A stretch of DNA of 64,000 nucleotides. Origin: an archaeon (GTDB lineage: Archaea > Nanobdellota > Nanobdellia > Woesearchaeales > GW2011-AR9). Shown piece by piece: positions 935-63,226 of this stretch. The stretch spans positions 8,303 through 72,302 of the forward strand of contig JBDRMB010000029.1 of the NCBI GenBank assembly GCA_043812455.1, given 5' to 3'. Position 1 is the first letter of the stretch. Each line of letters opens with the position of its first letter. Under the pieces are notes generated by a model that did no database searches, was not told the DNA's origin, and saw only the letters and a program-made list of their open reading frames with translations. A program made the position numbers and the translations under genes.

Positions 935-982
935 CTTTAGTACGATTTCTTACCACACTTAAATACATTTAGTTTATTTTAG

Positions 983-998
983 ACTACTTCAAAGTAGT
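983..998. promoter_or_regulatory. 16-nt palindrome ACTACTTCAAAGTAGT (7-bp arms) about 60 nt upstream of the small AbrB-like gene; candidate operator
   Basis: An inverted repeat read directly from the sequence. It lies in the divergent intergenic region between the Nop2-like gene and the AbrB-kinase pair, and TATA-like TTTATAAAG follows at about 1011. Confidence 0.3.
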
Positions 999-1058
999 TA
1001 CAAACCAAAAGATTTATAAAGAGAGTATGTTCTGGAATATGTATATTTTATACATAAA

Positions 1059-1202
1059 ATGAAACAGTTCACAATCACTAAAAAAATAGCAAAACATGGT
1101 AATCAAGCAATCATAGTTATACCTAGACTTATCGAGAAAGATCTTAAACCAGGAACTGTTGTTGAAGTAAAATTTAATATCCTGAAGGAGGCTAAAGAAT
1201 AA
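1059..1202 (+). CDS. small AbrB/MazE-type swapped-hairpin DNA-binding protein (47 aa), not in ORF track
   Basis: ATG 1059 to TAA 1200..1202 translates to MKQFTITKKIAKHGNQAIIVIPRLIEKDLKPGTVVEVKFNILKEAKE. The pattern hGNxxhhhIPxxhxxxLxLxxGDxVEh is typical of AbrB/SpoVT/MazE. Its stop overlaps the kinase ATG as TAATG. Confidence 0.6.
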   Translation: MKQFTITKKIAKHGNQAIIVIPRLIEKDLKPGTVVEVKFNILKEAKE

Positions 1203-3289
1203 TGGTAGCTCCAGACTTATTAGGACCAGTAAGAACAGTTGAAGATCTCATTAAACAATTATTGCCTTCTGAGAAATATAAAAATATTCAATTTTGGAAA
1301 TCTGGTGGAACAAGAGATCTTTACATGGCAGAATGGGGTCCAGGCAATGAAAAAAGAATTATTAAAGTAGACAAAAGTGAATTAGAAAGTCCTAGAGCTC
1401 AAAGACATGTTGAAAGAGGTTATGATACCTCTAATGATATCAGAGCTTTATCTGAGATATCAAACCCCGAAAGACACAACTTGATGCGTTTGGTTGATTA
1501 TTTTGATTTCAGCAAAACGCAAGGAATTACTGTTGCTGTTGAAAGACATTTTGAATCTCAATCTTTGGAAGAAAGAGTTCAAGATAAACCTTTAAAACTT
1601 AAAGAATTTGAAACTGTATTTTCGCAAGTGATTGAAGGTGCAAATTATTTCATTAACACTTGTGGAATGTACCATCGTGATCTAAAAGCTTCTAATATCC
1701 TAGTTAATGATGAACTAGAAGTCAGAATTACAGATTTTGCAAACGCTTGTAAGAAAAATGAAGTTCAGAAAAAATATATGCCAACTGCTGGCGGTCATTG
1801 GGTAAGTGATCCATTAGTTTTCTTCAATGGTTCTGAAAATGAATACAGAGAAACTTCAGAAATTTATGCAATTGGAACAGAGATGTTTTATGCTTTGACA
1901 GGGGAACATATTTTTGAGTATGATGCAGATAATGGTACAGGGATTTCTTGTTTTACAGGTGAAAGTTTACTTGATAAGAATGGTATTGTTGACAGAACAA
2001 GACATAATGCTACTTTAGATTATGCTCTCAAAAGATTACCATGGAGAATCAGAAGGAAATATGGTGAAGTTATCAAAAAAAGTTTAAGTTTGGATGACGA
2101 AGTAAGATATTCAAAAATCAGTGAATTGAAAAAAGATTTTGAAAATGAGAAAAATATGCCAAGTTGGTATCAGTATTTAACTTCAAGACTTATATTATCC
2201 TCACTATTGATTACGACAACTGGTTTTGCAATTGGTGGTGTTGGAATAATGCATCACTTAGAAAAAAAACTTGAAGAAACTCAAGCAGTTGCAGAAGAAA
2301 ATGCCAAATATTATGTCAAGCCAGAATGGGATGGCTTAAATCTTGAAATTAATAACAATCTTACAGAACTTGATTTAAAATTGTACATTCTTAATCGCAA
2401 AGGTCTTGATAATGATAGAGATTATGATAATTATCCCGAGTCTCATTTCCTAAAAGTTAACCCTGGAGAAAAATTGTCAGGATCAATTTCTTTTAGAGAA
2501 GTGGCGGGAGCCGATAATGGTGCTCTTGGACAGTGCAATGTTTCATTCTTCACTAGAGTATACATCGAAGGTTTTCCTGCTCAAGAGGAGTTTTATGTTC
2601 ATACAAGAGATCATGATAATTCTATAATTTATGGTATGGGAGCTATGGGATTGTACCAATTTCCAAACATTATTATTCCTGAGAACTTGCCTGACGGAAC
2701 TTATAATTTAATCATAGAGGCTTACTCTCCAAAAGATGATTCATATTTAAATGATAATATTATTGATGGTATGGAGAACTTAAGGTTCGATGAGTTCAGT
2801 CAGATTATACTAAGAAATCGTGTTCCTATAGTTGTTGGAAATCCTGAAGCTTTTGTGTCTGCAGAATATATGCGTGGAGATCTTGGACCAGCTATCCAAA
2901 TAAATAATCTGATAAGGAATCGTTATCATACCCCTGAGAATCTTTCAGGTAACTTAACATTTGAATTAGATTTGCTTGGAACTGACTATCACAAAGAATT
3001 TACTCCTCAAGGTCATTATGGTTCTTTATGGTTACCAAAAAAAGACAATCCAGAAGAACGGATATTACAAATAGTCACTCAGGACTCTGAAGGAGAAATG
3101 ATTTATTATACTTTTATCCCCATGGTTAATGAAATCCTTAACGAAGAAACTAGATATTCGCAATGGCGGCCAGGAATCCCAGGACCAGAATTCTACGAAA
3201 CTACAATTAAGTTAGGTCAAGCGTTGCGAGGAGAATCACATGATGAGCCCAGAGAGGGGACTGTTGGCCAGGTAGAAGTTCCTAATTGA
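1202..3289 (+). CDS. receptor-type Ser/Thr protein kinase-like membrane protein (cytoplasmic kinase domain, one TM, extracellular C-terminal domain)
   Basis: 695 aa. It has a catalytic-loop motif YHRDLKASNILV (HRDLKxxN) and a DFG-like TDFANA. A hydrophobic segment LILSSLLITTTGFAIGGVGIM lies near residue 340, followed by about 340 aa of predicted extracellular sequence. Confidence 0.7.
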   Translation: MVAPDLLGPVRTVEDLIKQLLPSEKYKNIQFWKSGGTRDLYMAEWGPGNEKRIIKVDKSELESPRAQRHVERGYDTSNDIRALSEISNPERHNLMRLVDYFDFSKTQGITVAVERHFESQSLEERVQDKPLKLKEFETVFSQVIEGANYFINTCGMYHRDLKASNILVNDELEVRITDFANACKKNEVQKKYMPTAGGHWVSDPLVFFNGSENEYRETSEIYAIGTEMFYALTGEHIFEYDADNGTGISCFTGESLLDKNGIVDRTRHNATLDYALKRLPWRIRRKYGEVIKKSLSLDDEVRYSKISELKKDFENEKNMPSWYQYLTSRLILSSLLITTTGFAIGGVGIMHHLEKKLEETQAVAEENAKYYVKPEWDGLNLEINNNLTELDLKLYILNRKGLDNDRDYDNYPESHFLKVNPGEKLSGSISFREVAGADNGALGQCNVSFFTRVYIEGFPAQEEFYVHTRDHDNSIIYGMGAMGLYQFPNIIIPENLPDGTYNLIIEAYSPKDDSYLNDNIIDGMENLRFDEFSQIILRNRVPIVVGNPEAFVSAEYMRGDLGPAIQINNLIRNRYHTPENLSGNLTFELDLLGTDYHKEFTPQGHYGSLWLPKKDNPEERILQIVTQDSEGEMIYYTFIPMVNEILNEETRYSQWRPGIPGPEFYETTIKLGQALRGESHDEPREGTVGQVEVPN

Positions 3290-4141
3290 AGCCATTAGAT
3301 GGTATACCATTAATGCTTCTTTACCTGTTTTCTTTTTCAGAAGGTTATATCCATCCCAATACAACAACTCTTTTTCTTTTTCGTGAACTTTTGCCAAAAG
3401 ATGAATGTCTTTGTTAAGATAAGACTTTTTTATAATTTCAAATATTTCTTGATTATCTTCTAAAAGTTTAATAATTTCCTTTGAAATGGGTATTTTACTG
3501 GTTAACAATTTACTGTTCAAATGATAAATTTCCCTTTGCCCTTGATTAATCAAAGTCATGAATGCCCATAAGAATTCAGAATTGTCTGCCTGAATTCTTT
3601 TTTTTGAAATAACTCTCCTACAAAAATTGTCAAATCTTTGTATTCTTTCTTCAACCTCAATAAATTCGTCATTCTTTACGTTACCGTTAATTCTATCTTT
3701 TGTTATTTCAAACAGTTCAGTAATATTATATAATATTTTTTTGAAGATTGTATCAAATTGGTCTGCAGTCGGTTCAGTTATATTTTCTATTGTGCAATAT
3801 CCCTTAGCTTTCTTTACAATTTCAAAACCCAATAGTCTTGTTTTTGTCACTTCGTTAAGAATTTTGAATTGAGATGGTTTGTCGTAAAATACTTTGACTT
3901 TATCGTAACCTCTTCGATAAGTGTTTGTAATTAATGTTCTTATTGATGATTCTGTTAAGTTTACTAATTTAATTTCTATTTCTGATTTAGTTTCAATTCC
4001 ACTTATTGAAATGATAAGGTTATTTCCAACCGCTTCGATATCAATCTCTGAACCTTTTTGGGCTTTGTTTTCTTTAACCCATTTGCTAGGTAAGCTGATC
4101 ATTAAAGTGCTTGTTCCTTGTTTTACTAGCTTTCTTCGCAT
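3236..4141 (-). CDS. AbrB-domain / PhoU-domain transcriptional regulator (archaeal phosphate-uptake-regulator-like)
   Basis: 301 aa. The N-terminus MRRKLVKQGTSTLMISLPSKWVKENKAQKGSEIDIE is a swapped-hairpin AbrB fold, followed by a helical PhoU-like body. The 3' end overlaps the kinase gene by 54 nt in convergent orientation. Confidence 0.75.
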   Translation of the reverse strand: MRRKLVKQGTSTLMISLPSKWVKENKAQKGSEIDIEAVGNNLIISISGIETKSEIEIKLVNLTESSIRTLITNTYRRGYDKVKVFYDKPSQFKILNEVTKTRLLGFEIVKKAKGYCTIENITEPTADQFDTIFKKILYNITELFEITKDRINGNVKNDEFIEVEERIQRFDNFCRRVISKKRIQADNSEFLWAFMTLINQGQREIYHLNSKLLTSKIPISKEIIKLLEDNQEIFEIIKKSYLNKDIHLLAKVHEKEKELLYWDGYNLLKKKTGKEALMVYHLMASIRNFYLANSPLSGLIM

Positions 4142-4179
4142 AGGTTGTTATTGTTTGGTGTATTTTTAAAACTTTTGCC

Positions 4180-4232
4180 AAAGTTTAAACATTTAAACTA
4201 AAATATATAGTTTAAACATAAAGTTTAAACAT
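4180..4232. promoter_or_regulatory. three copies of 13-mer A(A/T)AGTTTAAACAT plus one TTTAAAC half-copy; candidate operator array
   Basis: The palindrome GTTTAAAC occurs at 4183, 4210 and 4223, and TTTAAAC at 4193. The array lies in the divergent intergenic region between the AbrB-PhoU gene and the 4279 operon. The TATA-like AAAATATATA at 4201-4210 is interleaved with it. Confidence 0.4.
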
Positions 4233-4278
4233 TTCTTTCCAAAAACATTGTAACTACAAAAGAGTAAGAACACAAAAG

Positions 4279-5427
4279 GTGAGAACAATGAAATTAGAGA
4301 AAATACTTAACACAATCAAAAGAAAAATTACAGCACCATTAATTGCTGGTGCTTTAACAGTTGGTGCAATGATGCCAGCTTATGCTGCCGAGCAAGAATC
4401 AGTGGAAGCAGCCCAGGAAGATCCCAAAAAAACTGATGAATCATTTTTTCAAGGAAACTTAATCGGTTCAAACATTGATAACATAGTAACATTTAATCAT
4501 GATAACGGAGGAAGAGTACATTATGAAGCTGTCAACAGCCCATGGCAAGAAGTTCCTCAAAGTGATCATAGTTTAGGATTAAGAACTCCTTCTATTGCAG
4601 GAAAAGTCAGATTAAGTGGAACTTTAGATGCAAGTATTAGCTCTGAGAATTACCTAGGTGCTACTGAAATGGTTGAAGTTCTACCAGCAGATAATGTAAT
4701 TATTAGAGCTGGCGGAATTCAAAGTACTAGTGGCAAAATGGGAGGATTTGCAGGAGCAAAATTTACTCCAGAACATTTTACTGCAGATTTTGAAGCTTGG
4801 TATGACGGTACTAAATTTGACACTCACGGTTTCATTGCAGGAATAATTCCTGTAGGTAACGGAGAATTGTACCTAAGTATTGGTGGAGAATTAGGAGAGC
4901 GTGATATCAATACCACCAATGGTTGGTATAACGTTGGCGGAACAGGAATCTTTACTGGAACACACTTTGATATTGACAATAACACTCAAAGCTTGAAAGC
5001 AATAATTGTTCCAAAAGGTTACAGCAGAGGAAGAGGATTTAACGACTTTTATAGCCATATCAATAACAGAACAGAAATGCGAGCAGTAACTACTGGTTTT
5101 GTACAGGATAGTTGGGCACCTTTCGACGCTTTTGCTGTAGATGGTGAAAAAGGTCATGCAGCTGTTGCAGTGTATGCAAACAATAGTGAAGAAGCTATTG
5201 GTGGAAAAGCTCATCTTTATGTCAGACCGATACCACAAATATTCTTGGGAGTTGGTGCAGGATATTCTTATGACAAAGTTGCTGAAGAACATAATCCAAA
5301 CTTAGTTTTGGAAGCTTACGGTGCCGTACCTGGCACACCAGTAGAAGGTTGGATTACCATGGACCAGAACTTACGTACTGGCGAGCCTAATGTTACAGGT
5401 TATGTTGGTTTTGTGAACAAGTTTTAG
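4279..5427 (+). CDS. secreted beta-rich protein, possible beta-barrel (signal peptide, Gly-rich alternating strands, C-terminal Phe)
   Basis: 382 aa. The signal peptide is ...GALTVGAMMPAYA|AEQE. Gly/aromatic-rich amphipathic segments are abundant, and the C-terminus is ...TGYVGFVNKF. SD AGGTGA lies 8 nt upstream. Confidence 0.5.
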   Translation: MRTMKLEKILNTIKRKITAPLIAGALTVGAMMPAYAAEQESVEAAQEDPKKTDESFFQGNLIGSNIDNIVTFNHDNGGRVHYEAVNSPWQEVPQSDHSLGLRTPSIAGKVRLSGTLDASISSENYLGATEMVEVLPADNVIIRAGGIQSTSGKMGGFAGAKFTPEHFTADFEAWYDGTKFDTHGFIAGIIPVGNGELYLSIGGELGERDINTTNGWYNVGGTGIFTGTHFDIDNNTQSLKAIIVPKGYSRGRGFNDFYSHINNRTEMRAVTTGFVQDSWAPFDAFAVDGEKGHAAVAVYANNSEEAIGGKAHLYVRPIPQIFLGVGAGYSYDKVAEEHNPNLVLEAYGAVPGTPVEGWITMDQNLRTGEPNVTGYVGFVNKF

Positions 5428-6054
5428 GTGGAGAAAATGAATAGTAGAGATTGGGGACATTTTTGTTTTGGAGCTGCAGCAACACTAGGTTTAGGGATTG
5501 CAGCTTTTTCATATGTATCTTTTAGAGATAATCTTAACGTTGATAAAGATTATTACAAGAAAGGAGAACTCGAAATTGTTGTTAGTGATGTTGATAATGA
5601 TGGGGAGAGGGAAACTAACTTAATAGTAATTGACGAATACATTCGAGTTCCTTTAACCCATGATAATGTTAGAAGAAACTTTCCTGAAAAAGCAAATGAA
5701 AGACAAATTGAGAGAACTTACATGTTAAAAGAGTCAGGAACTCTTGATGATGGTACCAGACTTGGTAAACTTGGTGCTAGAAAGTTTGTGATAAATAATG
5801 TCAACTTGCCAATATCTCCTGGTTTTCATGAATTCATAGAATTAGATAACGGTGCTTATATTGGAAAATTAGGTGCTATGAGATATTTGCTTGATAAAGA
5901 TTGGAGTCCTACTTCTGCTGGATATCATGAAATAATTCCTAACAGTACAGGATATGATTCTATACTTGGCCAATGTCATTATACTTTAAGTTTGAAAGGA
6001 GAAATTCGGACCGCAAGTTCTGAAAAATGTAAACAATTACCAGAGAGTTATTAG
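5428..6054 (+). CDS. hypothetical membrane-anchored protein (N-terminal TM), translationally coupled to upstream gene
   Basis: 208 aa. The TM segment is FCFGAAATLGLGIAAFSYV. Its start is 1 nt after the upstream stop. Confidence 0.4.
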   Translation: MEKMNSRDWGHFCFGAAATLGLGIAAFSYVSFRDNLNVDKDYYKKGELEIVVSDVDNDGERETNLIVIDEYIRVPLTHDNVRRNFPEKANERQIERTYMLKESGTLDDGTRLGKLGARKFVINNVNLPISPGFHEFIELDNGAYIGKLGAMRYLLDKDWSPTSAGYHEIIPNSTGYDSILGQCHYTLSLKGEIRTASSEKCKQLPESY

Positions 6055-6910: not shown

Positions 6911-7269
6911 AACCACGGAACGGTTGGGATTGGATAGAAACAACACTGGACGGAGAGTATAATGAAAACAAACAAATTGTAGTTGAGTTTTACTTCCGTA
7001 TGTTCTCAGAAGAATGTTGGAGTCGCAGAGTACCGTCATCGTATAGAGGAATTATCAGAAAAATTGGAGATCATTATTTATCATATTATATTGAATCCTC
7101 AGATGAAAAAACATATACAGATATTGATCACGATTTGCCAACAGCAGCTAGAAATATGTACCAACACATGAAAGAAAAATGCGATACACTTGCTGAGGAA
7201 AAAATAAGATTTATCGAAAGTATTGATGACAAATTAAGAGAAATTCTGGAGGGAGAAAATGAAACTTGA
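6907..7269 (+). CDS. hypothetical protein (120 aa)
   Basis: The ORF overlaps the upstream stop by 4 nt (operon-like). No recognisable motifs. Confidence 0.35.
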   Translation: MKPRNGWDWIETTLDGEYNENKQIVVEFYFRMFSEECWSRRVPSSYRGIIRKIGDHYLSYYIESSDEKTYTDIDHDLPTAARNMYQHMKEKCDTLAEEKIRFIESIDDKLREILEGENET

Positions 7270-7558
7270 ACAAGAAGATTTAGGAAAATGGATTGCTGTT
7301 ACTTTTAACCCACAAAAATTATCTGATGAAGATGTCGAATCGCAAAGAATACCTTATAGTTCTGTAATTGATTATGAATTGAGAGAAAAAGATGAAGAAT
7401 TTGAAAGATTCTTTGAACAGATTCCAACAGCAGGGATAGCAATGCCTGTAGTTGACAGTGTTAACCCATATTATGTCGGAAAACATTTAGGCGCAAGTAG
7501 AGGTATAATAAGAGGAAAATTAGAAGAAATTACAGACACTTACTTCAAATTAAAATAA
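7259..7558 (+). CDS. hypothetical protein (99 aa)
   Basis: The ORF overlaps the previous gene by 11 nt. No recognisable motifs. Confidence 0.3.
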   Translation: MKLEQEDLGKWIAVTFNPQKLSDEDVESQRIPYSSVIDYELREKDEEFERFFEQIPTAGIAMPVVDSVNPYYVGKHLGASRGIIRGKLEEITDTYFKLK

Positions 7559-7605
7559 AGCTTTAATCCATAAACTTTTAAAACTCCCGCGCACAAAACC
7601 AGTAC

Positions 7606-8529
7606 ATGACCAAAATATCGCTGATTGGTGCTGGTAACCTGGGAGCATCAATTGCATACGAAATTGCTACTAGAAACCTCGCAGATGAACTTGTTCTTGT
7701 AGATATTGCTAAAGAATTGTGTTGCGGTCAAGCAATGGACATTCAACAAGCCCTGCCGTTTAAGAACAAGACCAAAGTTTATGATGGAGATTATCCAAAC
7801 ATAGCAAATTCTGACATTATTGTAATTACTGCCGGCAAACCAAGAACACCAGACATGACAGACAGACTACAATTAGCTAAAATTAACATCAAAATCATGA
7901 ATAGTGTGTTAGAACAAATCAAACACCACTCCCCTAACTCAATTATTATTACAATTAGTAACCCATTAGATATTATCAATCATCACATTCACAAGTTTGG
8001 ATTTGACCGGCACAAAGTTATTGGTTCTAGTTCACAATTAGATTCTGCGCGGTTCAGAACTGTACTGGGCCATCCTGACAAAAAAGTTGAAGCTTATGTT
8101 ATTGGCGAACATGGTAATGATCAAGTTCCAGTATTCAGTAAAGTTAAGATTAACGGAGAACTAAAACAATTTACAGATGAAGAAAAACAATCTCTCAAAG
8201 AACAATTAAAATATTCTTCTCTTTGTGTGATTGAAAAGAAAGGTTGTACAGTTTTTGCTCCTACTTCAAACACAGTAGATTTAGTGGAAGCTATTGTTAA
8301 AGATCAAAACAAACTGGTAGTATGCTCAACAAACTTAGAAAATGATTACTATTGCAGTGACGTTTCTTTAGGAGTTCCAGTTATCTTAAACAAAAATGGA
8401 ATAAAAGAAGTTGTGGAATGGGACCTAAGCGCAGAAGAATTAGAACAGTTCAGGGCAGCCGCCAAAAAACTACAAGATTTCTATCAAGAACTTACAGAAT
8501 CAGTAGAAGTAGCACCAATACACGAGTGA
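7606..8529 (+). CDS. mdh: malate/L-lactate dehydrogenase (LDH/MDH family)
   Basis: The N-terminal Rossmann motif is KISLIGAGNLGASIAYEIA. The substrate and catalytic region IVITAGKPRTPDMTDRLQL and the His-bearing segment IGEHGNDQVPVF are present. Confidence 0.85.
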   Translation: MTKISLIGAGNLGASIAYEIATRNLADELVLVDIAKELCCGQAMDIQQALPFKNKTKVYDGDYPNIANSDIIVITAGKPRTPDMTDRLQLAKINIKIMNSVLEQIKHHSPNSIIITISNPLDIINHHIHKFGFDRHKVIGSSSQLDSARFRTVLGHPDKKVEAYVIGEHGNDQVPVFSKVKINGELKQFTDEEKQSLKEQLKYSSLCVIEKKGCTVFAPTSNTVDLVEAIVKDQNKLVVCSTNLENDYYCSDVSLGVPVILNKNGIKEVVEWDLSAEELEQFRAAAKKLQDFYQELTESVEVAPIHE

Positions 8530-9695: not shown

Positions 9696-11582
9696 TCATT
9701 CAAAAAATATTCTTTTTATTCCTTTTAATTTTAATAACCTATTAACAAGAACTTCAATAAGTTCCATTTCTTTAGGTACAATTACAAAAGAACATTCAGA
9801 ATCTTGACCAAGAAGTTTAGCTTTCGCTTCCCGGACTTCAAACTTAGCATTGACAATGGTATGCAACAAGTCTGCTAATAATCCTGACCGGTTTCCTGCA
9901 ACTACATAAAATTTGAAATTTTTGCTAAGAGTATCTTTCCAACTTACTTTGACCCATCGTTCTTCCTCTTTTTCAATTTGCTCACACTCTTTTTTATGTA
10001 CAGAAATCAATCTTCTTTTAGTAACCAAACCTACAATTTCATCACAAGGAACAGGATAACAACATCTCGCTAGAACACAAGAGGCCTGCTTAAATTCGGG
10101 GGAATATACCAAAGTTTCGTACTCTTCCATAACTTGTGGTTTTAAGATCCGATAATGTAATGCTGGTAATTTTTGATATTTCTTCACACCTTTCCTGATT
10201 TTTTGTTTAGCTCTAGATGAGATCACAAATTTAAGCCAGTTACGTCTTGGCAACTGTTTCTTAGAAGTTAAGACTTCAATAACATCCCCTTTTTTTAATT
10301 GAGTACGTAACGGAACAAACTTACCATTTACATTAGCTCCGACAGTACGATTACCTACTTCTTCATGTACAATGTACGCAAAATCTAATACCGTTGCTCC
10401 CAACGGCAAGTATTTAACGTCACCTTTAGGGGTATAACAATAAATCTGATCATTGAAAACGTCAATCTTAACATTTTCCAGAAATTCCCTTGCACTGGCA
10501 TCTTTTTGAAGGCTGAGGATATCCTTCATCCACTCCATTCGTTTCTCAAAATCAAAATCAGATTTCAGACCTTTATATCTCCAGTGTGCAGCCAAACCTT
10601 CTTCTGCAATATCATCCATTTCTTTAGTTCTGATCTGTACTTCTAAGAACTTGTTACCTTTCCATTTCAGTGCAGTATGGATTGACTGATAACCGTTAGG
10701 TTTTGGATGAGAGATGTAATCTTTTAATCTTCCTTCAATCGGTTCAAAATTTTCGTGCAGAAAACCAAGTACTGCATAACAATCATTTATTGTTTTTACA
10801 ACTACTCTTATCCCTAAAAAATCATAAATGTCCTGTAACCGTTTTCCTTTCTTGACAACTTTTTTGTAAATACTGTAAATATGTTTAGACCTTCCTTTGA
10901 CGTCAATAAATTCAACATTTTTCAAGGATTTAATCTTATCAATAGCTTCATTAACATCATCATCTCGTTCTTCTCGTGAAGTTTCTAAAAAATCAGCAAT
11001 CTCTTGAAATTTTTTTCGATTGATTGCTTTGAAAGCCAGATCTTCCAGCTCAGTCCTGATTCTTTCCATCCCTAGACGATAAGCTAACGGAGCATAAATG
11101 TCAAGAACTTCTTGAGAAATTCTGATTTGTTCATCTTTAGGTAAGGCATCAATATCTCTTTGATTATCTAACTTATCAGCAAGTTTAATGAAAATAACTC
11201 GGACATCGTTCACTGTTGCCAAAAGCACTTTTCTAATCGTTTCTGCAGTAAGTTTAATGTTTCTTTTCCTGATGGTAGTTATTTCATCCACACCTTTAAC
11301 TAAAGAAAGAACATCCTGACCAAACTTTTCTTTAATTTCCTGATCGGTTTTATACTTACTTGTCCCATGTATGATTGCTGCCAAGATAAGTTCAGGAGCA
11401 GCACCATTTTCTGCTAATATTTTCGCTACGCGCAAACTATGATCAAAATAATCATCTCCAGCCAATCTTTTTTTATCGCTTAAGATTTCTCTAGCAAAAA
11501 TAATTCCTTCTTCAAACTTAGTGATATCTTTATCGGAATAATCTTTTGTGTCCAGAAATCGAAAGAATGATTGAATATCCAT
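9696..11582 (-). CDS. bifunctional (p)ppGpp synthetase/hydrolase, RelA/SpoT homologue
   Basis: 628 aa. The HD hydrolase region is HSLRVAKILA. The synthetase motifs are DFLGIRVVVKTINDCYAVLGFLH and DYISHPKPNGYQSIHTAL. A TGS-like region (VYSPKGDVKYLPLGATVLDFAY) follows. Confidence 0.85.
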   Translation of the reverse strand: MDIQSFFRFLDTKDYSDKDITKFEEGIIFAREILSDKKRLAGDDYFDHSLRVAKILAENGAAPELILAAIIHGTSKYKTDQEIKEKFGQDVLSLVKGVDEITTIRKRNIKLTAETIRKVLLATVNDVRVIFIKLADKLDNQRDIDALPKDEQIRISQEVLDIYAPLAYRLGMERIRTELEDLAFKAINRKKFQEIADFLETSREERDDDVNEAIDKIKSLKNVEFIDVKGRSKHIYSIYKKVVKKGKRLQDIYDFLGIRVVVKTINDCYAVLGFLHENFEPIEGRLKDYISHPKPNGYQSIHTALKWKGNKFLEVQIRTKEMDDIAEEGLAAHWRYKGLKSDFDFEKRMEWMKDILSLQKDASAREFLENVKIDVFNDQIYCYTPKGDVKYLPLGATVLDFAYIVHEEVGNRTVGANVNGKFVPLRTQLKKGDVIEVLTSKKQLPRRNWLKFVISSRAKQKIRKGVKKYQKLPALHYRILKPQVMEEYETLVYSPEFKQASCVLARCCYPVPCDEIVGLVTKRRLISVHKKECEQIEKEEERWVKVSWKDTLSKNFKFYVVAGNRSGLLADLLHTIVNAKFEVREAKAKLLGQDSECSFVIVPKEMELIEVLVNRLLKLKGIKRIFFE

Positions 11583-54703: not shown

Positions 54704-55408
54704 TCATTCTCCACCCAGATATACTTTCTTTATTTTTTTGTTATGAATAATCTCTTTCCCACCAACTAAAGCAATCTTGCCATCTTCCAACAAATAAGTT
54801 CTGTCAGCCATCTCAATAGCTTTCTTGGCGTTTTGTTCAACAATCAGAATTGCAAGACCTTCATCCCTCAACTTTTCAATAATGGCAAAAATTTCTTGCT
54901 GTAATTTCGGACTCAATCCTAAAGAAGGTTCATCCATCAACAATAATCTTGGCTTTTGCATTAAAGATCTGCCAATCGCTAACATTTGTCGTTGCCCGCC
55001 ACTTAGCGCAAACGCTTGCTGTTTTCTTCGCTCTTTCAAGATTGGAAATTTTTGATAAACTTCTTCCAACCTTTGCTTGATGATATCTGAATTTCTAATG
55101 TGATTACAAGCAATTTCTAAATTTTCCTGAACAGTTAAGTGGTCAAACACAATTCTTCCTTGTGGCATATAACTTACTCTTCTAGAAAGGAGTTGATGAG
55201 TTTTTAATTTTGAGATGTTTTTGTTATTGAAAACTATTGCACCAGAATACTGGTCAGCTATACTGTACACAGATTTGATAACTGTACTCTTTCCAGCACC
55301 GTTCGGTCCGATTAAAGCGACAACTTCATTTTCATTTACTTCTAGGTCCACTCCTTTCAGTATCTTAAGTTCCCCGTACCCAGCACGTAAATCTTTTATT
55401 TTTAACAT
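54704..55408 (-). CDS. livF: branched-chain amino acid ABC transporter ATP-binding protein (LivF-like); start trimmed to Met 55408
   Basis: Walker A GPNGAGKST, the ABC signature LSGGQRQMLAIGRSL, and Walker B LLLMDEPS. Confidence 0.8.
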   Translation of the reverse strand: MLKIKDLRAGYGELKILKGVDLEVNENEVVALIGPNGAGKSTVIKSVYSIADQYSGAIVFNNKNISKLKTHQLLSRRVSYMPQGRIVFDHLTVQENLEIACNHIRNSDIIKQRLEEVYQKFPILKERRKQQAFALSGGQRQMLAIGRSLMQKPRLLLMDEPSLGLSPKLQQEIFAIIEKLRDEGLAILIVEQNAKKAIEMADRTYLLEDGKIALVGGKEIIHNKKIKKVYLGGE

Positions 55409-55415
55409 TTTAATC

Positions 55416-56150
55416 TCACCCTCCCAGATACGCCTCAAGAACCTTTTTGTCATTCTGCACTTCCTTAGGCTTGCCGTGTGCAATAACCTTCCCAGCGTCA
55501 AGAACAAAAACATAATCCGCAATGTCCATCACAAAATTCATATCGTGCTCAATAAGAATTACGGTTTCGCCTTGACCTTTCAAATTTCTCAAAATCTCTT
55601 TGATCTTAACTCTTAATTTCGGATTAACCCCAGCAACAGGTTCATCAAGCATCAACAGGTAATGTGGTTTAGCAATCGCAACTGCAAGATCAAGTAATTT
55701 CCGTTGACCGTAACTTAAATCATTAGCATAAGTTTCAAGAGGTTTGTTCAACCCCACTAACTCAAGAACTTTTTTGATCTTATCAATACTATTACGTTTC
55801 TGGTTCAGGATACTCCACAACATACTTTCATCTTTCTTAGAGAAAGTTATTCCCAAATGATCTTGAATCGTTAAATTTTTGAATAGTCTAACTTCCTGGA
55901 AAGTTCTTGAAACTCCAGCTTTAGCAATCTTATAATCTTCAAGTTTAGTAAGATCTCTTTTACCTAAAGTTATTTTCCCAGTATCAGGTTTGATCAATTT
56001 TGAAATCACATTGAATAGAGTTGTCTTTCCAGAACCATTCGGACCAATGATAGCTGTAATTTCTCCTTGCTCAACGGTTAGCTGACAATTATCTAATGCT
56101 TTCACACCGCCAAAATTTTTACTGATTCCTCGGATTTCTAACAGACTCAT
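55416..56150 (-). CDS. livG: branched-chain amino acid ABC transporter ATP-binding protein (LivG-like)
   Basis: Walker A GPNGSGKTT, the signature LSYGQRKLLDLAVAI, and Walker B LLMLDEPVAG. Confidence 0.85.
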   Translation of the reverse strand: MSLLEIRGISKNFGGVKALDNCQLTVEQGEITAIIGPNGSGKTTLFNVISKLIKPDTGKITLGKRDLTKLEDYKIAKAGVSRTFQEVRLFKNLTIQDHLGITFSKKDESMLWSILNQKRNSIDKIKKVLELVGLNKPLETYANDLSYGQRKLLDLAVAIAKPHYLLMLDEPVAGVNPKLRVKIKEILRNLKGQGETVILIEHDMNFVMDIADYVFVLDAGKVIAHGKPKEVQNDKKVLEAYLGG

Positions 56151-57019
56151 TCTAGATCAACCCTCCCAAATATTCCCCGTGGTCGGTAAATTAAGATCAG
56201 CAATAATACTACTGCATAGAAAACCATCCTTAACGGACCTAACAGATGTCCAGGTAATGGAATAAACCGTAGCAATTCTAATAAGATGAAAATTATAAAA
56301 GTTCCAATGATCGAACCACTGATTGAAGCAATCCCACCGATAATTACAATTGTGAAAATGAAAATAACTTCTAAAATTGTAAAGTGAGTCGGATCAATGT
56401 AAGATAAATAATGTGCTAGAAGACTACCAGCAATCCCTGCAAAGAACGCAGAAATCATCATCGCTTTATACTTTAATCTAAAAGTATTCTTACCAAGTAC
56501 TCTTAACCCAACTTCATCATCTCTGGTAGCTTCCAATAATCTGCCAAATGGTGAACGCATCAACAAATACATGATAAGAACTGAGAGAACTGTGATAATT
56601 GCAACTAGTATTAAGTAAGACCAACTTGCAGAAAATGCTATTCCAAAAATTTCCGGTTTTGGAATACCTGGCAAGCCTAAAGGTCCACCGGTTAAACTGC
56701 TCCAATTAATAAGTACTGCATAAACAACAAAACTAAACCCTAAAGTTGTCAATGCCAAATAATCTCCCCTTAGTCTTTTGGTAGCACTTGTTAATATAAA
56801 ACCAAACAAGCTGGCAAACAACCCTGCGATGATCAATGAGAAGAAAAACGGTACTCCGGCAATATTCAATAATGCTGAAGTGTAAGCTCCTACTGCAAAG
56901 AAAGCCACATGACCTAAGTTCAATAATCCAGTATAACCTAATGCAACATTCAAGCTTACTGCTAGGATAATATAAATACCAATCATGATTAAGATGTGAA
57001 TAAGGTATGCTTCAATCAT
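56147..57019 (-). CDS. livM: branched-chain amino acid ABC transporter permease (LivM-like)
   Basis: 290 aa with about 8 hydrophobic helices, positioned between the ATPase and LivH-like genes. Confidence 0.75.
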   Translation of the reverse strand: MIEAYLIHILIMIGIYIILAVSLNVALGYTGLLNLGHVAFFAVGAYTSALLNIAGVPFFFSLIIAGLFASLFGFILTSATKRLRGDYLALTTLGFSFVVYAVLINWSSLTGGPLGLPGIPKPEIFGIAFSASWSYLILVAIITVLSVLIMYLLMRSPFGRLLEATRDDEVGLRVLGKNTFRLKYKAMMISAFFAGIAGSLLAHYLSYIDPTHFTILEVIFIFTIVIIGGIASISGSIIGTFIIFILLELLRFIPLPGHLLGPLRMVFYAVVLLLILIYRPRGIFGRVDLE

Positions 57020-58737: not shown

Positions 58738-58800
58738 TTTTATTCCTCCATCTAACAACCCCAGAAACCACAAAATAAAAAAAATAAAAAAAAGTAAAAT

Positions 58801-59940
58801 TTACTTCAAAAGTACAGACTCACTATCTTTGATCATGAAGAAATCATAACCAGCAGATGCAATGTCACCAATCTCATCAAACTGAATCAAATCATTAGAT
58901 TCTCCTGAATAAGAAGTATCTCTTAACGCTGCTTTGATATCGTTTGCATCAGTACTGCCAGCATCTTCAATCGCTTCTACCATTACCATGAAAGCATCGT
59001 ATCCTAAAGATGCTGCAATGGAAATCTCTAGATTTTCATAACCAGGTAAAGCGTGGATTTTGTTTTCAAAAGCATTTGACTGTTCGATACTTACAGTAGA
59101 GTAAATTGCTCCGTCACCATAACCGCTGGCCCAAACTTCTTCACCCTGCCAAGCATCGCCGCCAAGCATTGGTAAATTTAAACTAAGTTCTTCTGCTTGC
59201 TTGAAAAATGCTACCGCGTTAGTTGGATAGATTGGAGCAAAGATTGCTTCTGCGCCACTGTTTTTAATTTTGGTAATTTCAGTTCTGAAATCAGTATCTG
59301 TTTGTAACACTCCGCTTTCGTAAACAATTTCGCCGCCCATTTCTTCAAATGATTTAGTGAAAACGTTTTTCATACCTTCTCCCCAATCATTCTTGGTGTA
59401 AACCAAAGCAACTTTATCATAACCAAGTTCTTCCATCATATATTCAGCACCGACAACTCCTTGCAATGAATCGCTAGGGTAAATTCTGAATATACAATCA
59501 CCTACACTTGTAAGATCTGGAGCAGACGCTGCTACCATCATAACAGGTACGTTAGCACTTTGTGCAATAGGAATTGCTGGACCTGCTGCTGCGGAACAGA
59601 TTGGACCAACAATAGCATCAACCTGATCAACATTAACTTCTTTGTTAAAAGCTGCAACACTACTAGCGCTACAACTATCATCTTCTAAAACAACCTCAAC
59701 TTCCTGACCGCTAATTCCACCTTGTGCATTAACTTCATTTAAAGCTAAAGTAATTCCCGCAAAAGCATTTTCTCCCCAAGAAGCTGCTTCACCAGTCATT
59801 GGTAATACAACACCAATCTTAATTGGATCATCACTTCCAACTTTCACATATTCTCCAGTCGGACTTTGTGTACATCCAACTACTGAAAATAGTAACATTG
59901 CTGTTACTAAACTAAACATTAGTACATTCATTATTTTCAT
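58801..59940 (-). CDS. livK: branched-chain amino acid ABC transporter substrate-binding lipoprotein (LivK/LivJ-like)
   Basis: The signal plus lipobox is MLLFSVVGCTQS. The LIVBP family pattern is IKIGVVLPMTGEAASWGENAFAGITLALNEVNAQGGISGQEV. Confidence 0.8.
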   Translation of the reverse strand: MKIMNVLMFSLVTAMLLFSVVGCTQSPTGEYVKVGSDDPIKIGVVLPMTGEAASWGENAFAGITLALNEVNAQGGISGQEVEVVLEDDSCSASSVAAFNKEVNVDQVDAIVGPICSAAAGPAIPIAQSANVPVMMVAASAPDLTSVGDCIFRIYPSDSLQGVVGAEYMMEELGYDKVALVYTKNDWGEGMKNVFTKSFEEMGGEIVYESGVLQTDTDFRTEITKIKNSGAEAIFAPIYPTNAVAFFKQAEELSLNLPMLGGDAWQGEEVWASGYGDGAIYSTVSIEQSNAFENKIHALPGYENLEISIAASLGYDAFMVMVEAIEDAGSTDANDIKAALRDTSYSGESNDLIQFDEIGDIASAGYDFFMIKDSESVLLK

Positions 59941-60096: not shown

Positions 60097-60999
60097 ATGA
60101 AAAGAAAAATTGTCAAACTCGGACCTGCGACATTAGTAGTCAGTTTACCAAGCAAGTGGGTAAGAAAAATTAATGTTAAAGTGGGAGATGAAGTAGAATT
60201 AGAAGAAAGAGACGATGGTCTGTTAATTAGTCCAGAAAGAACTAGTAGAACGATGAAAGACAATTTAGAATTCATTAAGCCAAATCGCTTAATGCGCAGA
60301 ATTGTTGCAGCTAAATATATGAAAGGTGCTGATGAGATTGATATTAAAGTTGGATCGACAGCAATCTCAAGAGAAATCCAGAAAAGAGTTGATCAAATGA
60401 TTGGTATGGAAATTGTTGATCAATCAAAAGATAAACTGCTAATTAAAAGTCTTGGGATCAGCGAAGAAGATAATATTGAAACAATCTCTAAAAGAATATT
60501 ATATTTACTCCAATCAATTTCTGATGAAAGTCTTAATGCCATTAAAAACAGAGAGACTGATTTGGAATATCTGAAAGATATGGAACTTAACGTTAACAAG
60601 TTTTCAGAATATTGTTTTCGATTATTAAATAAGAAAGGACATCCTCAACCGAGCAAAACTGCTAGTTTTTATTGCAGTTTATTTTTGTTAGAAGAACTGG
60701 CCGATGAATACAAGAAACTTATCGATCACATTAATGATAACAAGGTTAAATTAAATAATAAATTAACTGATATTTATGCTAAAATTAATTCTTATCAAAA
60801 AAGCATGAACAAGATCTTTCTTAAATACAATGAAGAGAAAGCATTATCTTTAGCCAAAGAATATGATATTATTTCTAAAGATATTGAACTTGAACTGAAG
60901 AAGACCAAATCCGTTAAGGAAGCAATTGTCTTAAAAACTTTTGAAAACATTTCCCATATCATAATTAAGATCATGAATGAGTTCATGAATATCAATTAA
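60097..60999 (+). CDS. AbrB-domain / PhoU-domain transcriptional regulator, second copy
   Basis: The N-terminus MKRKIVKLGPATLVVSLPSKWVRKINVKVGDEVELEE is a swapped-hairpin, with a helical PhoU-like remainder. It is a paralogue of 3236..4141. Confidence 0.75.
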   Translation: MKRKIVKLGPATLVVSLPSKWVRKINVKVGDEVELEERDDGLLISPERTSRTMKDNLEFIKPNRLMRRIVAAKYMKGADEIDIKVGSTAISREIQKRVDQMIGMEIVDQSKDKLLIKSLGISEEDNIETISKRILYLLQSISDESLNAIKNRETDLEYLKDMELNVNKFSEYCFRLLNKKGHPQPSKTASFYCSLFLLEELADEYKKLIDHINDNKVKLNNKLTDIYAKINSYQKSMNKIFLKYNEEKALSLAKEYDIISKDIELELKKTKSVKEAIVLKTFENISHIIIKIMNEFMNIN

Positions 61000-63095
61000 A
61001 AATCTTCTTCCCGTGGAGTAGCAAAGTATAAAGAACCAATATTATCACTAGCAGGACCATAATTCATCGCAGCATAAACTAATTCTCTGATGTCTTTAGA
61101 TATTATTTCATTATACGGATTGTTTAAATCAATCAAATTATAAGCGCATTCGGGACAACTAGAAGACCCCATATTACCAAGATCTCTTTCTTGAGGAGTA
61201 TAAAATTCATACAATGCTGCTTTTATATATCCATTATGTTTTTCTACCAATTGTGCTAATCTAGCAGCACCTTGATCCAAATTTTCTAATGGGTCAATTG
61301 TATTATCCCCATCTTTAAAATCTCGGTCAGCAAGTAAGGGGTCAAGAATATTTATATCAATTGTCCTCTCACTTTCTCGCATTATTCCTTGCCAACCATA
61401 GAGACGATTACTCTCCAACATATTTCTCAAAACTTTTGGTTCTAAAGAATATTTGTTTGCAATTTGATTTACAACTTCATCACCAATTTCATAACGTCCA
61501 TTTTCTACTTTACCATCAAGAATATCACTTTTAGCTGTTTCAAATGATCCGGTGAAGTTTATTCGATAGAGCTCTTCGCGAATTCCCTGCATATCAAAAA
61601 GCAAATCTTCCTGCCTTTCAATTTCATTCCTTCTTTCTTCCAAATACCTTGCACCAACTGCAACACCAACAATTGCAGATAGTCCAACAACTGGAAGCAT
61701 AACTCGATAAATTGCCCTTTTCCATTTTTTTTTTCTAATCTCTTTCCTTATTTTGGCAATCTCATCACTAGCGTTCTCTTCTACCAACTCAGTCAGAGGT
61801 ACCGGGGAAGCATTCTCCTGAGTCATGGCCTCGTGCGGATTACATCTCTCTTTCAACTGACGATAATCTCCTTCCATAAGTTCTCTAACAGAATATTTTC
61901 CGACAAACGGTCTATTCTCCCTGACAGCTTTCAAAAATTCTTGACTTACGATTCCCCGTGCCGTGGCATCGCCAATCCTCCTGGTAGCATCATTATACAA
62001 TACATTAGCCATGTTTTGCAACTTCTGAGCACTTAAATCATCTTCAGCGTTATCAGCCATCTTAATATACTTCTTAACAGCAACAAGTTCTTGCAAGATT
62101 TTGTTCTTAACGTAAATTCCAAAAGATTGAGTTTGCATCTCTTCATCATCCTCATGTAACTTCTCAGCAGCGTACATTGTTAATTGATATTCCGTATCCA
62201 TATCTAAGTTAGATTTGGTCAGCAATTTCCTCAAATCAAATTCAAAGAATCCATCAGAACAGGCAGCTGCCCAATCTAAATAAACAAACTTTCCATTAAC
62301 AAGAATATTGTTACCATGTAAATCACCATGAATGTTACTTCCTTTAGCAGCATTGAGATCGTCACCGATATCTTGCTTAAACAATTCGCACAACTTAGAA
62401 TCATCAGAATAAGACCTTACAAAATATTCATTAAAATCTGCTAACCTTTTTGGAAGGTCTAACCGTTCTCTAAATTCTTTAATATTAAGTACAGTATACA
62501 AACCAACATAATCATCAATCACTTTTTCGAGCAATGCAACATTATTTGCTTCATAATTTATATCCTGCAATGTTTTCAAAGTACTTCCTTCTACGAAAGG
62601 TGTGATAGTAATTCTTTTTCTTCTGTTGATAAAAGGCAGTGTTGGTACTTGACCTTCATAGGCTGTTCCTTCCAACAAATCACTTAATTCTCTTTGAGTC
62701 CTAACTGCAATTTTGAAATCTTCTTTCTTTGAAGATTTTTTTACTATATGTCTGATTGCAACTTTATCAGTTAATTGAAGAACTGCTTCTGCCACATAAC
62801 CGTCTTGTTCAGAAGTGTTTAATGTTACAGCATCTAAGAACCTTAATTCAGCTGCAAGAACATCAATACCTTTATCAGTTACAGCATTAGCTATCTTGCT
62901 TAATTGTTGGGGTGAGATTACACCACTTGCACTTAAACGTTCCAGTTCTGGCAATACAATTTGCTCTATGTATGCATCACAAGTTCTGTTTCCTAATGTT
63001 TCTCGTAATGGAAGATTCATAGCTTGGGCAAAGTGTTGTTTTCCAAACTTTTTTACTAAGTCCATATCAATCCTTCCCGGTACTTCTGAACTCAT
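60996..63095 (-). CDS. membrane-anchored protein-kinase-like protein (APH/CotS/RIO-like fold), one TM, extracellular C-terminal domain
   Basis: The beta3 Lys context is VAIRHIVKK. The catalytic loop is NIHGDLHGNNILVN. The metal-binding element is VYLDWAAA. The TM is AIYRVMLPVVGLSAIVGVAVGA near residue 460. About 230 aa of extracellular sequence have weak SLT-like spacing (RESER ... GAARLAQL ... YIKAALYEFY). Confidence 0.65.
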   Translation of the reverse strand: MSSEVPGRIDMDLVKKFGKQHFAQAMNLPLRETLGNRTCDAYIEQIVLPELERLSASGVISPQQLSKIANAVTDKGIDVLAAELRFLDAVTLNTSEQDGYVAEAVLQLTDKVAIRHIVKKSSKKEDFKIAVRTQRELSDLLEGTAYEGQVPTLPFINRRKRITITPFVEGSTLKTLQDINYEANNVALLEKVIDDYVGLYTVLNIKEFRERLDLPKRLADFNEYFVRSYSDDSKLCELFKQDIGDDLNAAKGSNIHGDLHGNNILVNGKFVYLDWAAACSDGFFEFDLRKLLTKSNLDMDTEYQLTMYAAEKLHEDDEEMQTQSFGIYVKNKILQELVAVKKYIKMADNAEDDLSAQKLQNMANVLYNDATRRIGDATARGIVSQEFLKAVRENRPFVGKYSVRELMEGDYRQLKERCNPHEAMTQENASPVPLTELVEENASDEIAKIRKEIRKKKWKRAIYRVMLPVVGLSAIVGVAVGARYLEERRNEIERQEDLLFDMQGIREELYRINFTGSFETAKSDILDGKVENGRYEIGDEVVNQIANKYSLEPKVLRNMLESNRLYGWQGIMRESERTIDINILDPLLADRDFKDGDNTIDPLENLDQGAARLAQLVEKHNGYIKAALYEFYTPQERDLGNMGSSSCPECAYNLIDLNNPYNEIISKDIRELVYAAMNYGPASDNIGSLYFATPREEDF

Positions 63096-63226
63096 TTTTT
63101 ATTCCCCATCCGTTTAAGCGCATATTCAAAAGCGTGCGATCTATTTCTGAACTTTCCAGTTAGAACACTAGCATCTACATCTACTAAAACATCTTCATTT
63201 ACAGTGATACTGATCTTACGCTTCAT
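63092..63226 (-). CDS. small ribbon-helix-helix (CopG/Arc-like) DNA-binding protein, 44 aa, not in ORF track
   Basis: The translation is MKRKISITVNEDVLVDVDASVLTGKFRNRSHAFEYALKRMGNKK, with a beta-strand (KISITV) followed by two helices as in RHH. Its stop TGA overlaps the kinase ATG (ATGA). A TATA-like TTTATAAA lies about 27 nt upstream. Confidence 0.5.
   Translation of the reverse strand: MKRKISITVNEDVLVDVDASVLTGKFRNRSHAFEYALKRMGNKK

Follow-up and report, generated by a model that had tools for sequence, protein, structure and literature searches.

How the DPANN archaea, which have very small genomes and few recognisable regulators, sense their host or nutrients is largely unknown, and one locus raises the question of whether a membrane kinase and a small DNA-binding-like protein encoded together could serve as such a sensing device. 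The locus lies in a 64,000 nucleotide (nt) stretch of a Woesearchaeales genome of the GW2011-AR9 lineage (GenBank assembly GCA_043812455.1, contig JBDRMB010000029.1, positions 8,303 to 72,302 of the forward strand), which is called the window in the following. Its cassette (module 1) comprises the genes for a 47 amino acid (aa) protein that recalls AbrB and MazE, a 695 aa receptor-type kinase and a 301 aa AbrB-PhoU-like protein, and a mirror-image arrangement (module 2) is found at 60.1-63.2 kb. An earlier note made from the letters of the stretch had drawn attention to both. Module 1, which recurs in many DPANN archaea, has the look of a dedicated and so far undescribed signalling unit rather than of a chance arrangement or a toxin-antitoxin system.

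The first two genes of the cassette are joined as the earlier note had read them (Table 1). The list of open reading frames (ORFs) and the sequence agree on a junction gaaTAATGgta, in which the TAA stop of the small ORF (1200-1202) and the ATG of the kinase gene (1202-1204) have one base in common. A purine-rich run resembling a Shine-Dalgarno sequence sits at the same spot in all eight junctions shown, as GGAGG in five of them and as AGAGG or GGGTGAG in the other three. The conserved C-terminal L-K/R-E-A codons of the small protein partly double as this GGAGG and are thus under a double constraint. Since the kinase start lies in the stop of the small gene and the GGAGG is embedded in that gene, the two proteins are expected to be made together. 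The 301 aa gene is convergent with the kinase gene and the two overlap by 54 nt at their 3′ ends, as had also been claimed.

The 695 aa protein is, as judged from its sequence, a Hanks-type Ser/Thr kinase with an intact predicted active site. It matches the Pfam profile Pkinase (PF00069) over aa 54-304 (72.1 bits, cutoff 31.7, E = 6.2e-20), 250 kinases in the PDB match it at E <= 1e-5, and its catalytic part is recognised by the NCBIfam profile PknB_PASTA_kin (E = 1.4e-8). The motifs YHRDLKASNILV and TDFANA are present. Across 13 family members there is no variation at K55 (the β3 lysine), H158-R159-D160, N165 or the Mg-binding D178, and K162 is conserved in at least 90% of the 13 sequences, which corresponds to the Ser/Thr-type signature HRDLKxxN. 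The profile search thereby found the kinase fold that had been put up for checking, with its catalytic residues intact, and the lone hydrophobic segment behind it agrees with the proposed architecture of a kinase domain, one transmembrane helix and an ectodomain of about 340 aa. The ectodomain, searched as aa 360-695, has no Pfam or PDB sequence match, shows no PASTA or other recognised sensor domain, and has no paralogues within the window.

Like the receptor kinases PknB, PrkC and Stk1, the protein combines an N-terminal RD-type (HRD) Hanks domain with a single transmembrane helix and a C-terminal extracellular domain. Unlike these it has no PASTA domains, its glycine-rich loop is reduced to a degenerate GGT, its DFG motif reads DFA, an Arg-rich insert follows the β3 lysine, its start is overlapped by a dedicated small gene and its host is an archaeon. 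The insert, SPRAxRHVxRGYDTxND (aa 57-80, around 1370-1441 of the window), is located between the β3 lysine and helix C; P64, R65, R68, R72 and G73 are invariant, and it could provide a docking or regulatory surface. It is missing from two canonical kinases that are still paired with a small protein, namely that of contig L169 and kinase A of contig L167 (contigs fetched for comparison are given L numbers). A word-indexed homologue search for the kinase found 13 relatives, the breadth of the family being visible only via the small and the 301 aa proteins. Scans of genome and metagenome collections with the kinase alignment caught the generic HRDLKxxN: the matches in the genome collection were bacterial kinases, and 160 loci of distant kinases with 21-38% core identity were uninformative.

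The small protein belongs to a sharply bounded, DPANN-specific family of at least 213 clusters at 90% identity, with 157 representatives at 50% identity in a search of 1.84 billion proteins. Nearly all members are 40-105 aa long, mostly 40-80, and stand alone with short, variable tails; longer matches look like miscalled or chimeric ORFs and were rejected as genuine fusions. The protein has a basic net charge, and 13 positions are invariant in 51 family sequences, with the core ITKKIAKHGxQAIxVIP...L.P. It is 54-87% identical across loci where the kinases have drifted to 25-40%. Because synonymous changes are abundant at this high protein identity (synonymous codon differences are as frequent as non-synonymous ones, for example 16 versus 11 between the window and L169), the codon pattern indicates that the small ORF is a real gene under purifying selection. 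Its conservation had been proposed as a check, and proves to be strong.

The swapped-hairpin AbrB/MazE fold that had been claimed for the 47 aa protein receives sub-threshold support. Pfam MazE_antitoxin (PF04014) scores 16.4 bits against a cutoff of 24.7 and matches 12 of 51 relatives, at best with E = 1e-3, over profile positions 1-31 of 48. In hhalign the small family aligns in register with the AbrB domain of the 301 aa family over K-x-x-K-x-G...IP...L-x-x-G (P = 0.03), and comparison with the profile of the full-length 301 aa family gives a probability of 0.3%. The AlphaFold2 (AF2) monomer model (pLDDT 77) contains a single helix at residues 23-28; its top Foldseek matches are RIFT, MazE and VapB, all non-significant, and a PDB profile search with the family returned spurious matches only. 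A HicA-like reading, for which 9 of 51 members give matches (E >= 0.015), was discarded, as the match needs a gap at the extended segment; we take the signature GNQAIIVIP to fit MazE and VapB better than HicA. In one family representative, P0254, two copies are naturally fused in tandem, and it is therefore argued that the unit is a dimer. Overall, the small protein is probably a truncated AbrB/MazE-like dimer that lacks the last strand.

The conservation of the cassette was followed by contig look-ups that started from three sides, the relatives of the kinase (32-65% identity), distant small proteins and the 301 aa family. A member of the small family overlaps or directly precedes the kinase gene in 11 of 13 independent contexts from Woese-, Pace- and Nanoarchaeota. 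An overlap of 1-11 nt between the small gene and the start of the kinase gene is seen in the window, L161, L162/163, L164, L165, L166, L167 (twice), L169/170, L179/180 and L181; in L171-176 the small gene lies one short gene upstream of the kinase. The gene that adjoins the small gene in L171 bears no relation to its counterpart in L177. The convergent AbrB-type gene of about 300 codons, here termed AbrB-300, faces the kinase in 11 contexts. The loci reached from the kinase relatives (L161, L162/163, L164, L165, L166 and L167) share one order, with a 47-58 aa ORF overlapping the kinase start, a convergent gene for an AbrB-type protein of 296-307 aa and then, divergent from the latter, a gene for a protein of 373-416 aa and no known family. 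The flanking genes vary between these loci and include an RsmB-like methyltransferase, tRNA synthetases and a Liv-type binding protein. With differing flanks around four constant genes, the four travel together.

The pairing also holds for kinases that are 25-40% identical, and for those whose C-terminal domains are unrelated (L169 and kinase A of L167). The distant small protein P0084 leads to L169/170, where the kinase has 572 aa with an unrelated C-terminal domain and faces a convergent gene for a 303 aa AbrB-type protein. The Pacearchaeota small protein P0125 leads to a small gene followed by genes for a 94 aa protein and a 697 aa kinase, with an AbrB-type gene 1.4 kb downstream, and from the 301 aa family, P0190 and P0225 each lead to a convergent kinase whose start is overlapped by a gene of the small family. 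L167 carries two tandem pairs of small gene and kinase with different ectodomains (1247-5497), and in L165 a single kinase is preceded by two small genes (4718-5004). Named relatives of the three proteins come from Woesearchaeota, Pacearchaeota, Nanoarchaeota and Nanoarchaeia, with a few given simply as archaeon, and the lone taxonomic exception is a 3-kb contig binned as Coatesbacteria. Judged from gene order, the arrangement of small protein, kinase and AbrB-300 is far beyond chance and recurs in divergent genomes. The earlier proposal to look for kinases beside small DNA-binding-like genes thus met with the same small family overlapping the kinase in nearly all related loci, and the pair with its flanking AbrB-PhoU-like regulator appears to be a conserved functional unit.

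A small gene that overlaps the gene of a larger enzyme and has a palindromic, operator-like element at its promoter is also the layout of type II toxin-antitoxin systems such as MazEF, VapBC and HipBA. Following that logic, which the earlier note had kept as an alternative in its HipBA form, the small protein would neutralise a kinase toxin and repress the operon, and some members of the small family do carry the label MazE antitoxin in Joint Genome Institute (JGI) annotations. This explanation is now disfavoured and seems highly improbable. The kinase is a single-pass membrane receptor with a 340 aa ectodomain, of Hanks rather than HipA type, and a 47 aa protein has no room for a tail that could bind and neutralise a toxin. 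Antitoxins, as a rule, are far less conserved than the small protein. The synteny within the unit, including the third and fourth genes, is kept and the surroundings are of a housekeeping kind, rather than those of mobile elements, and PADLOC returns generic kinase-domain matches alone.

The region in front of the small gene contains conserved elements of its own. A box of the type TTTATAA, CTTATAA or TTTAAAA occurs in nine of ten loci, 42-47 nt before the ATG in five and 34-79 nt before it in the other four. Where the promoter directly precedes the small gene, TACATA/TATGTA hexamers are found between the TATA box and the ATG, usually two of them 9-13 bp apart. Ten 70-nt upstream regions, three of which come from close relatives, contain 19 such hexamers, whereas 0.41 are expected from the background of the loci and 1.25 from shuffles, and none of 5000 shuffles gave as many. 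The pair at 1038/1051 is unique in the window (shuffle mean 0.59), and in the fetched loci such pairs occur almost solely in front of the small gene. As the boxes lie where transcription is expected to start, they suggest autorepression. The palindrome further upstream that had been pointed out earlier is present in the window as ACTACTT-ca-AAGTAGT; ten upstream regions of 110 nt contain 11 ACTAC/GTAGT words, where about 1.5 would be expected and none of 5000 shuffles gives as many, and the word is found at seven of ten loci.

Which protein binds the TACATA boxes may be judged from the distant L169. There an identical TACATA palindrome with 11-bp arms accompanies a small protein with an unchanged N-terminal half, and the neighbouring AbrB-300 protein is 25% identical. 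Since the palindrome and the N-terminal half of the small protein are kept while AbrB-300 has diverged, the small protein is more likely than AbrB-300 to be the binder.

The same elements bear on the idea that the small protein does not bind DNA at all and instead acts as a cofactor or scaffold of the kinase, for instance on the SPRAxRHVxRG insert or on the juxtamembrane segment. The coupled translation of the two proteins and the extreme conservation of the smaller one would fit such a role, as would the acidic C-terminal tails of the small proteins when set against the basic kinase insert with its invariant R65, R68 and R72, and the AbrB fold of the small protein is not established. The conserved basic core of the small protein (K8, K12 and H13), however, recalls the signature GNSxAVRIP with which MazE and VapB bind DNA, the promoter of the small gene carries a conserved palindromic element, and the kinases of L169 and L167 (kinase A) remain paired with a small protein although they lack the insert. 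A pure cofactor role is therefore improbable.

The 301 aa protein had been named an AbrB-PhoU regulator, and its AbrB part is recognised by sequence: the N-terminus matches Pfam MazE_antitoxin with 30.2 bits (cutoff 24.7), and all ten of the family members aligned match as well. The family comprises at least 300 clusters, with at least 46% identity among the 120 matches listed, and many homologues are called phosphate uptake regulator by the JGI. The PhoU part escapes sequence comparison. PhoU (PF01895) is matched by one of the ten aligned members (E = 0.048), none of the homologues listed has a precomputed PF01895 match, and the PDB profile search gave no sequence match for the family. It emerges in the AF2 model (pLDDT 88, pTM 0.78), which consists of an AbrB-type β-β-α-β-β domain (aa 5-45), an α/β domain (aa 54-120) and a helical bundle (aa 126-300) in keeping with the two three-helix bundles of the PhoU fold. 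Among the top Foldseek matches of this model are the PhoU structures 1t8b, 1t72, 4q25, 1xwm and 2i0m from five organisms, with probabilities of 0.9-1.0, target-normalised TM-scores of 0.43-0.56 and E-values of 0.02-0.4. The AbrB-PhoU name thus holds at the level of the predicted fold. A nearly invariant C-terminal ANSPLSGLI (S294, P295, L296 and G298; window 3239-3270) is missing from the paralogue in module 2, and its Ser-Pro pair is conceivable as a phosphorylation site.

PhoU-family factors are counted among the archaeal transcription factors (PMC6316755). Like the archaeal AbrB-PhoU regulators, the 301 aa protein and its 300 aa paralogue in module 2 begin with an AbrB domain and end in a PhoU-like bundle. 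The 301 aa type differs in its extra α/β domain, the lack of a PhoU match by sequence and the absence of pst genes nearby; a Hanks kinase is instead a conserved neighbour, the other being a predicted secreted protein or a Liv-type ATP-binding cassette (ABC) operon. The predicted secreted protein is encoded in module 1 by the divergent fourth gene (382 aa), which has homologues at the same position in L161-L167 (27-67% identity) and in L179. The divergent promoter region between the 301 and 382 aa genes contains three exact AGTTTAAACAT repeats, and of the four GTTTAAAC sites found across the window, three fall within the repeat region. The repeats recur as three copies in L161 and L162 and as one to two in L164 and L165, and are plausibly the operator of the AbrB-PhoU-like protein. 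The members of the 382 aa family measure 360-416 aa, begin with an N-terminal signal or anchor segment and are always divergent from the AbrB-PhoU-like gene. Their C-terminus is always aromatic (...NKF, ...GKF, ...GSF or ...GAW) and recalls the C-terminal signal of bacterial outer-membrane β-barrels, which would be odd for an archaeon.

It is proposed that transcription from the promoter with its paired TACATA boxes gives a message of two cistrons. The first would yield the 47 aa protein, which as a homodimer with a truncated AbrB/MazE-like barrel would bind the TACATA boxes and repress its own operon. The second cistron, which begins inside the stop of the first (TAATG here, ATGA in relatives) and would use the embedded GGAGG, would yield the kinase with its catalytic domain in the cytoplasm, one transmembrane helix and a variable ectodomain. 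A signal from outside would then be relayed by the kinase, through phosphorylation or direct binding, to one or both of the small protein and the AbrB-PhoU-like factor, whose DNA binding would change; the small protein would act in parallel with the AbrB-PhoU-like factor or through it. The targets of the AbrB-PhoU-like factor would in turn be the genes divergent from it: in module 1 that of the secreted protein of about 380 aa, in module 2 and in some further genomes an uptake operon of the Liv ABC type. We infer that the small protein binds DNA and represses its own operon, that phosphate is transferred to either DNA-binding protein, and which genes are regulated. That an autoregulated small DNA-binding dimer is co-made with the receptor kinase as its cytoplasmic partner, be it a substrate or a bound regulator, alongside the AbrB-PhoU-like factor, has in our judgement about an even chance of being right. 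The narrower version, in which the kinase directly phosphorylates or sequesters the small DNA-binding dimer in response to a host or nutrient cue sensed through its variable ectodomain, as a lineage-specific, one-step Ser/Thr analogue of a two-component system, is tentative and somewhat unlikely; in that version the invariant T7 of the small protein is a candidate phosphorylation site.

Several observations weigh against the small protein being the partner of the kinase in this way, and some of them fit a more modest role, in which it is only an operon repressor that sets the level of the kinase and the output of the kinase goes to the AbrB-PhoU-like factor or to unlinked substrates. The TACATA boxes are specific to the promoter of the small gene, and AbrB-300 is linked to the kinase as tightly as the small gene is. 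In L177/178 the small gene is found in an operon without a kinase. The small domain is fused to a kinase in none of the 157 representatives. The most distant kinase (P0013, in L168) lacks a small AbrB-like gene, no phosphatase or FHA partner was seen near the cassette, the small protein is too invariant to yield any co-variation signal with the kinase, and proteins are paired with the DNA motifs that they may bind by co-conservation. A mere local repressor, on the other hand, would not be expected to keep 54-87% identity and 13 invariant residues while kinase and promoter context diverge, and the start-codon overlap kept at kinase-linked loci suggests that it is important in what ratio the two are made. 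An exclusively local role is accordingly regarded as unlikely, and the co-made cytoplasmic partner is preferred.

Regulation of an AbrB-type protein by a Hanks kinase has a precedent. The PrkC, PrkD and YabT kinases phosphorylate AbrB of Bacillus subtilis, modulating how it binds DNA (Kobir et al. 2014, as reported in PMC6213207). This is the nearest mechanistic parallel to the device proposed for the cassette, where two AbrB-type candidates of 47 and 301 aa are genetically locked to the kinase and phosphorylation is only proposed. In Bacillus the kinase and AbrB genes are unlinked, and AbrB is a 96 aa protein with a C-terminal multimerisation domain.

In concept, a membrane sensor kinase in one operon with a small DNA-binding-like partner also resembles the two-component systems. 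Unlike these, the small protein has no receiver-like domain and phospho-Asp chemistry is not involved; profile searches of the six proteins of both modules found no histidine kinase (HisKA/HATPase) or receiver domain. A further parallel is PhoR-PhoU-PstSCAB, since in module 2, L168 and L181 a PhoU-fold gene likewise lies between a membrane sensor kinase and an ABC uptake operon. In the bacterial system the kinase is a histidine rather than a Hanks kinase and the transporter is of Pst rather than Liv type, and in the archaeal protein a DNA-binding domain is joined to the PhoU-like one. The resemblance to bacterial PhoU logic suggests by analogy that a PhoU-like protein may link transporter or nutrient status to a kinase.

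Each component is of a known kind, and no description of the cassette, the small-protein family or the operator was found in the searchable literature; the linked cassette, the family and the operator are apparently new. With about 160-300 sequence clusters for each component in the lineage, the cassette is a strong candidate for a core signalling route, because it unites a receptor kinase with varying sensors, a nearly invariant 47 aa partner and a conserved operator of its own. In bacteria and archaea the substrates of Ser/Thr kinases are rarely encoded beside the kinase, so that linked pairs for study are mostly lacking, and the cassette would provide a genetically linked pair of kinase and AbrB-type factor. 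It is also directly testable, given small proteins, a defined DNA site and candidate target genes next door. If the one-step Ser/Thr pair is real, it could be a major route of environmental sensing in genome-reduced DPANN archaea, and together with the AbrB-PhoU-like factor it would switch uptake and surface genes.

Table 1. Coordinates of the features discussed; positions are nt of the window unless a contig is named
Feature	Position	Strand	Basis or remark
Palindrome ACTACTT-ca-AAGTAGT	983..998		read from sequence; upstream of BRE/TATA region (BRE, B recognition element)
TATA box TTTATAAA, preceded by aaccaaaag (BRE-like)	1013..1020	+	inferred promoter of small-gene/kinase operon
Paired TACATA boxes TATGTATA-ttt-TATACATA	1038..1056		putative operator between TATA box and ATG
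47 aa ORF	1059..1202	+	ORF list and sequence
GGAGG Shine-Dalgarno sequence for kinase	1187..1191	+	within last codons of small ORF
695 aa ORF, receptor-type kinase	1202..3289	+	ORF list and sequence
Kinase domain, about aa 20-320	1259-2161	+	Pfam and alignment
Transmembrane helix of kinase, aa 330-352	2189-2257	+	lone hydrophobic segment
Ectodomain of kinase, aa 353-695 (about 340 aa)	2258-3286	+	follows transmembrane segment
301 aa ORF, AbrB-PhoU-like	3236..4141	-	ORF list
Three exact AGTTTAAACAT repeats	4180..4234		divergent promoter region of 301 and 382 aa genes; copies at 4182-4232
382 aa predicted secreted or anchored protein	4279..5427	+	fourth gene of close family; no Pfam match
382 aa homologue	L161 5137-6282		
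382 aa homologue	L162 8084-9241		
382 aa homologue	L164 4720-5970		
382 aa homologue	L165 8079-9302		
382 aa homologue	L166 8098-9219		
382 aa homologue	L167 6589-7818		
382 aa homologue	L179 3763-4851		
Liv-type binding-protein/ABC operon	54704-59940		divergent from 300 aa AbrB-PhoU-like gene
300 aa AbrB-type ORF	60097..60999	+	Pfam MazE_antitoxin 41.9 bits, cutoff 24.7
699 aa single-pass membrane protein	60996..63095	-	transmembrane segment aa 461-485; probable APH/choline-kinase-like domain
44 aa ORF, ribbon-helix-helix (RHH)-like	63092..63226	-	weak NikR N-terminal and CdrS matches

Module 2 had been described as the same three-part arrangement in mirror image. The geometry is indeed repeated, with overlaps of 4 nt both between the 44 and 699 aa genes and between the 699 aa gene and the convergent 300 aa AbrB-type gene, and with one transmembrane segment in the larger protein; it is at best tentatively the same device, as the 699 aa protein belongs to a different kinase-like family, itself weakly assigned. 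The 300 aa protein is a paralogue of the 301 aa protein (27% identity over the first 180 aa or so, 23-24% in a full-length alignment). For the APH/CotS-like label of the 699 aa protein, the motifs HGDLHGNNILV...YLDW are visible in the sequence and agree with a kinase-like fold, and the scores are below the cutoffs, with 19.5 bits against 23.2 for APH (PF01636; E = 9e-4) and E = 7e-4 for TCAD9. The kinase-like domain is placed in the cytoplasm because a basic stretch, KIRKEIRKKKWKR, precedes the transmembrane segment. No PDB sequence match and no homologue in the fetched loci were found for this protein. The RHH label of the 44 aa protein is similarly sub-threshold: NikR (E = 0.015) and CdrS (E = 0.018) both miss their cutoffs by far, and Pfam gives no match.

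The sole homologue found for the 44 aa protein, 50% identical, is encoded at 944-1063 of L168. There it overlaps the start of a gene for a 994 aa protein of unknown family with a weak NucS_C match (944-4074), which on comparison is unrelated to the 699 aa protein. The operon opened by this RHH homologue continues into and ends with the Hanks kinase P0013, which is faced by a convergent AbrB-300 gene. L168 is a case in which an RHH-led operon, a Hanks kinase and an AbrB-300 gene occur in combination.

The substrate-binding protein of the operon beside module 2 (58801..59940) matches Peripla_BP_6 with E = 4e-56, and the genes downstream of it are, at a guess, those of permeases and ATPases. An AbrB-300-type gene is divergent from such a Liv-type operon in module 2, L181 and L168, and in L166 a binding-protein gene lies upstream of and beside the pair of small gene and kinase.

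The surroundings of the cassettes offer some further observations. L169, a Woesearchaeota contig, encodes beside its kinase cassette a 361 aa protein (6929-8014) that matches bacterial Sigma70 region 4 with E = 2e-11 and region 2 weakly, and a sigma-70-like protein is unexpected for an archaeon. The window itself is AT-rich (GC about 30-39%) and contains no tRNA genes or Rfam families; ORFs resembling ribosomal proteins near 63.4-64.0 kb are presumably archaeal L14e and L34e. A 628 aa ORF at 9696-11582, near module 1, corresponds in length to syntenic genes in L162 and L165 (628 and 631 aa) with precomputed RelA_SpoT, HD_4 and TGS domain matches; by this likeness the window ORF may encode a RelA/SpoT-type (p)ppGpp enzyme. 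To our knowledge such enzymes are rarely discussed for archaea.

Finally, three small membrane-anchored proteins (5428-6054, 57892-58212 and 58197-58505), none of which has a Pfam match, share the motif D-x-D-x-DG..ET.L...(V/I)PLT..N, which resembles a calcium-binding loop. One of them is encoded beside module 1, and the other two between the binding-protein gene and the putative permease genes beside module 2.

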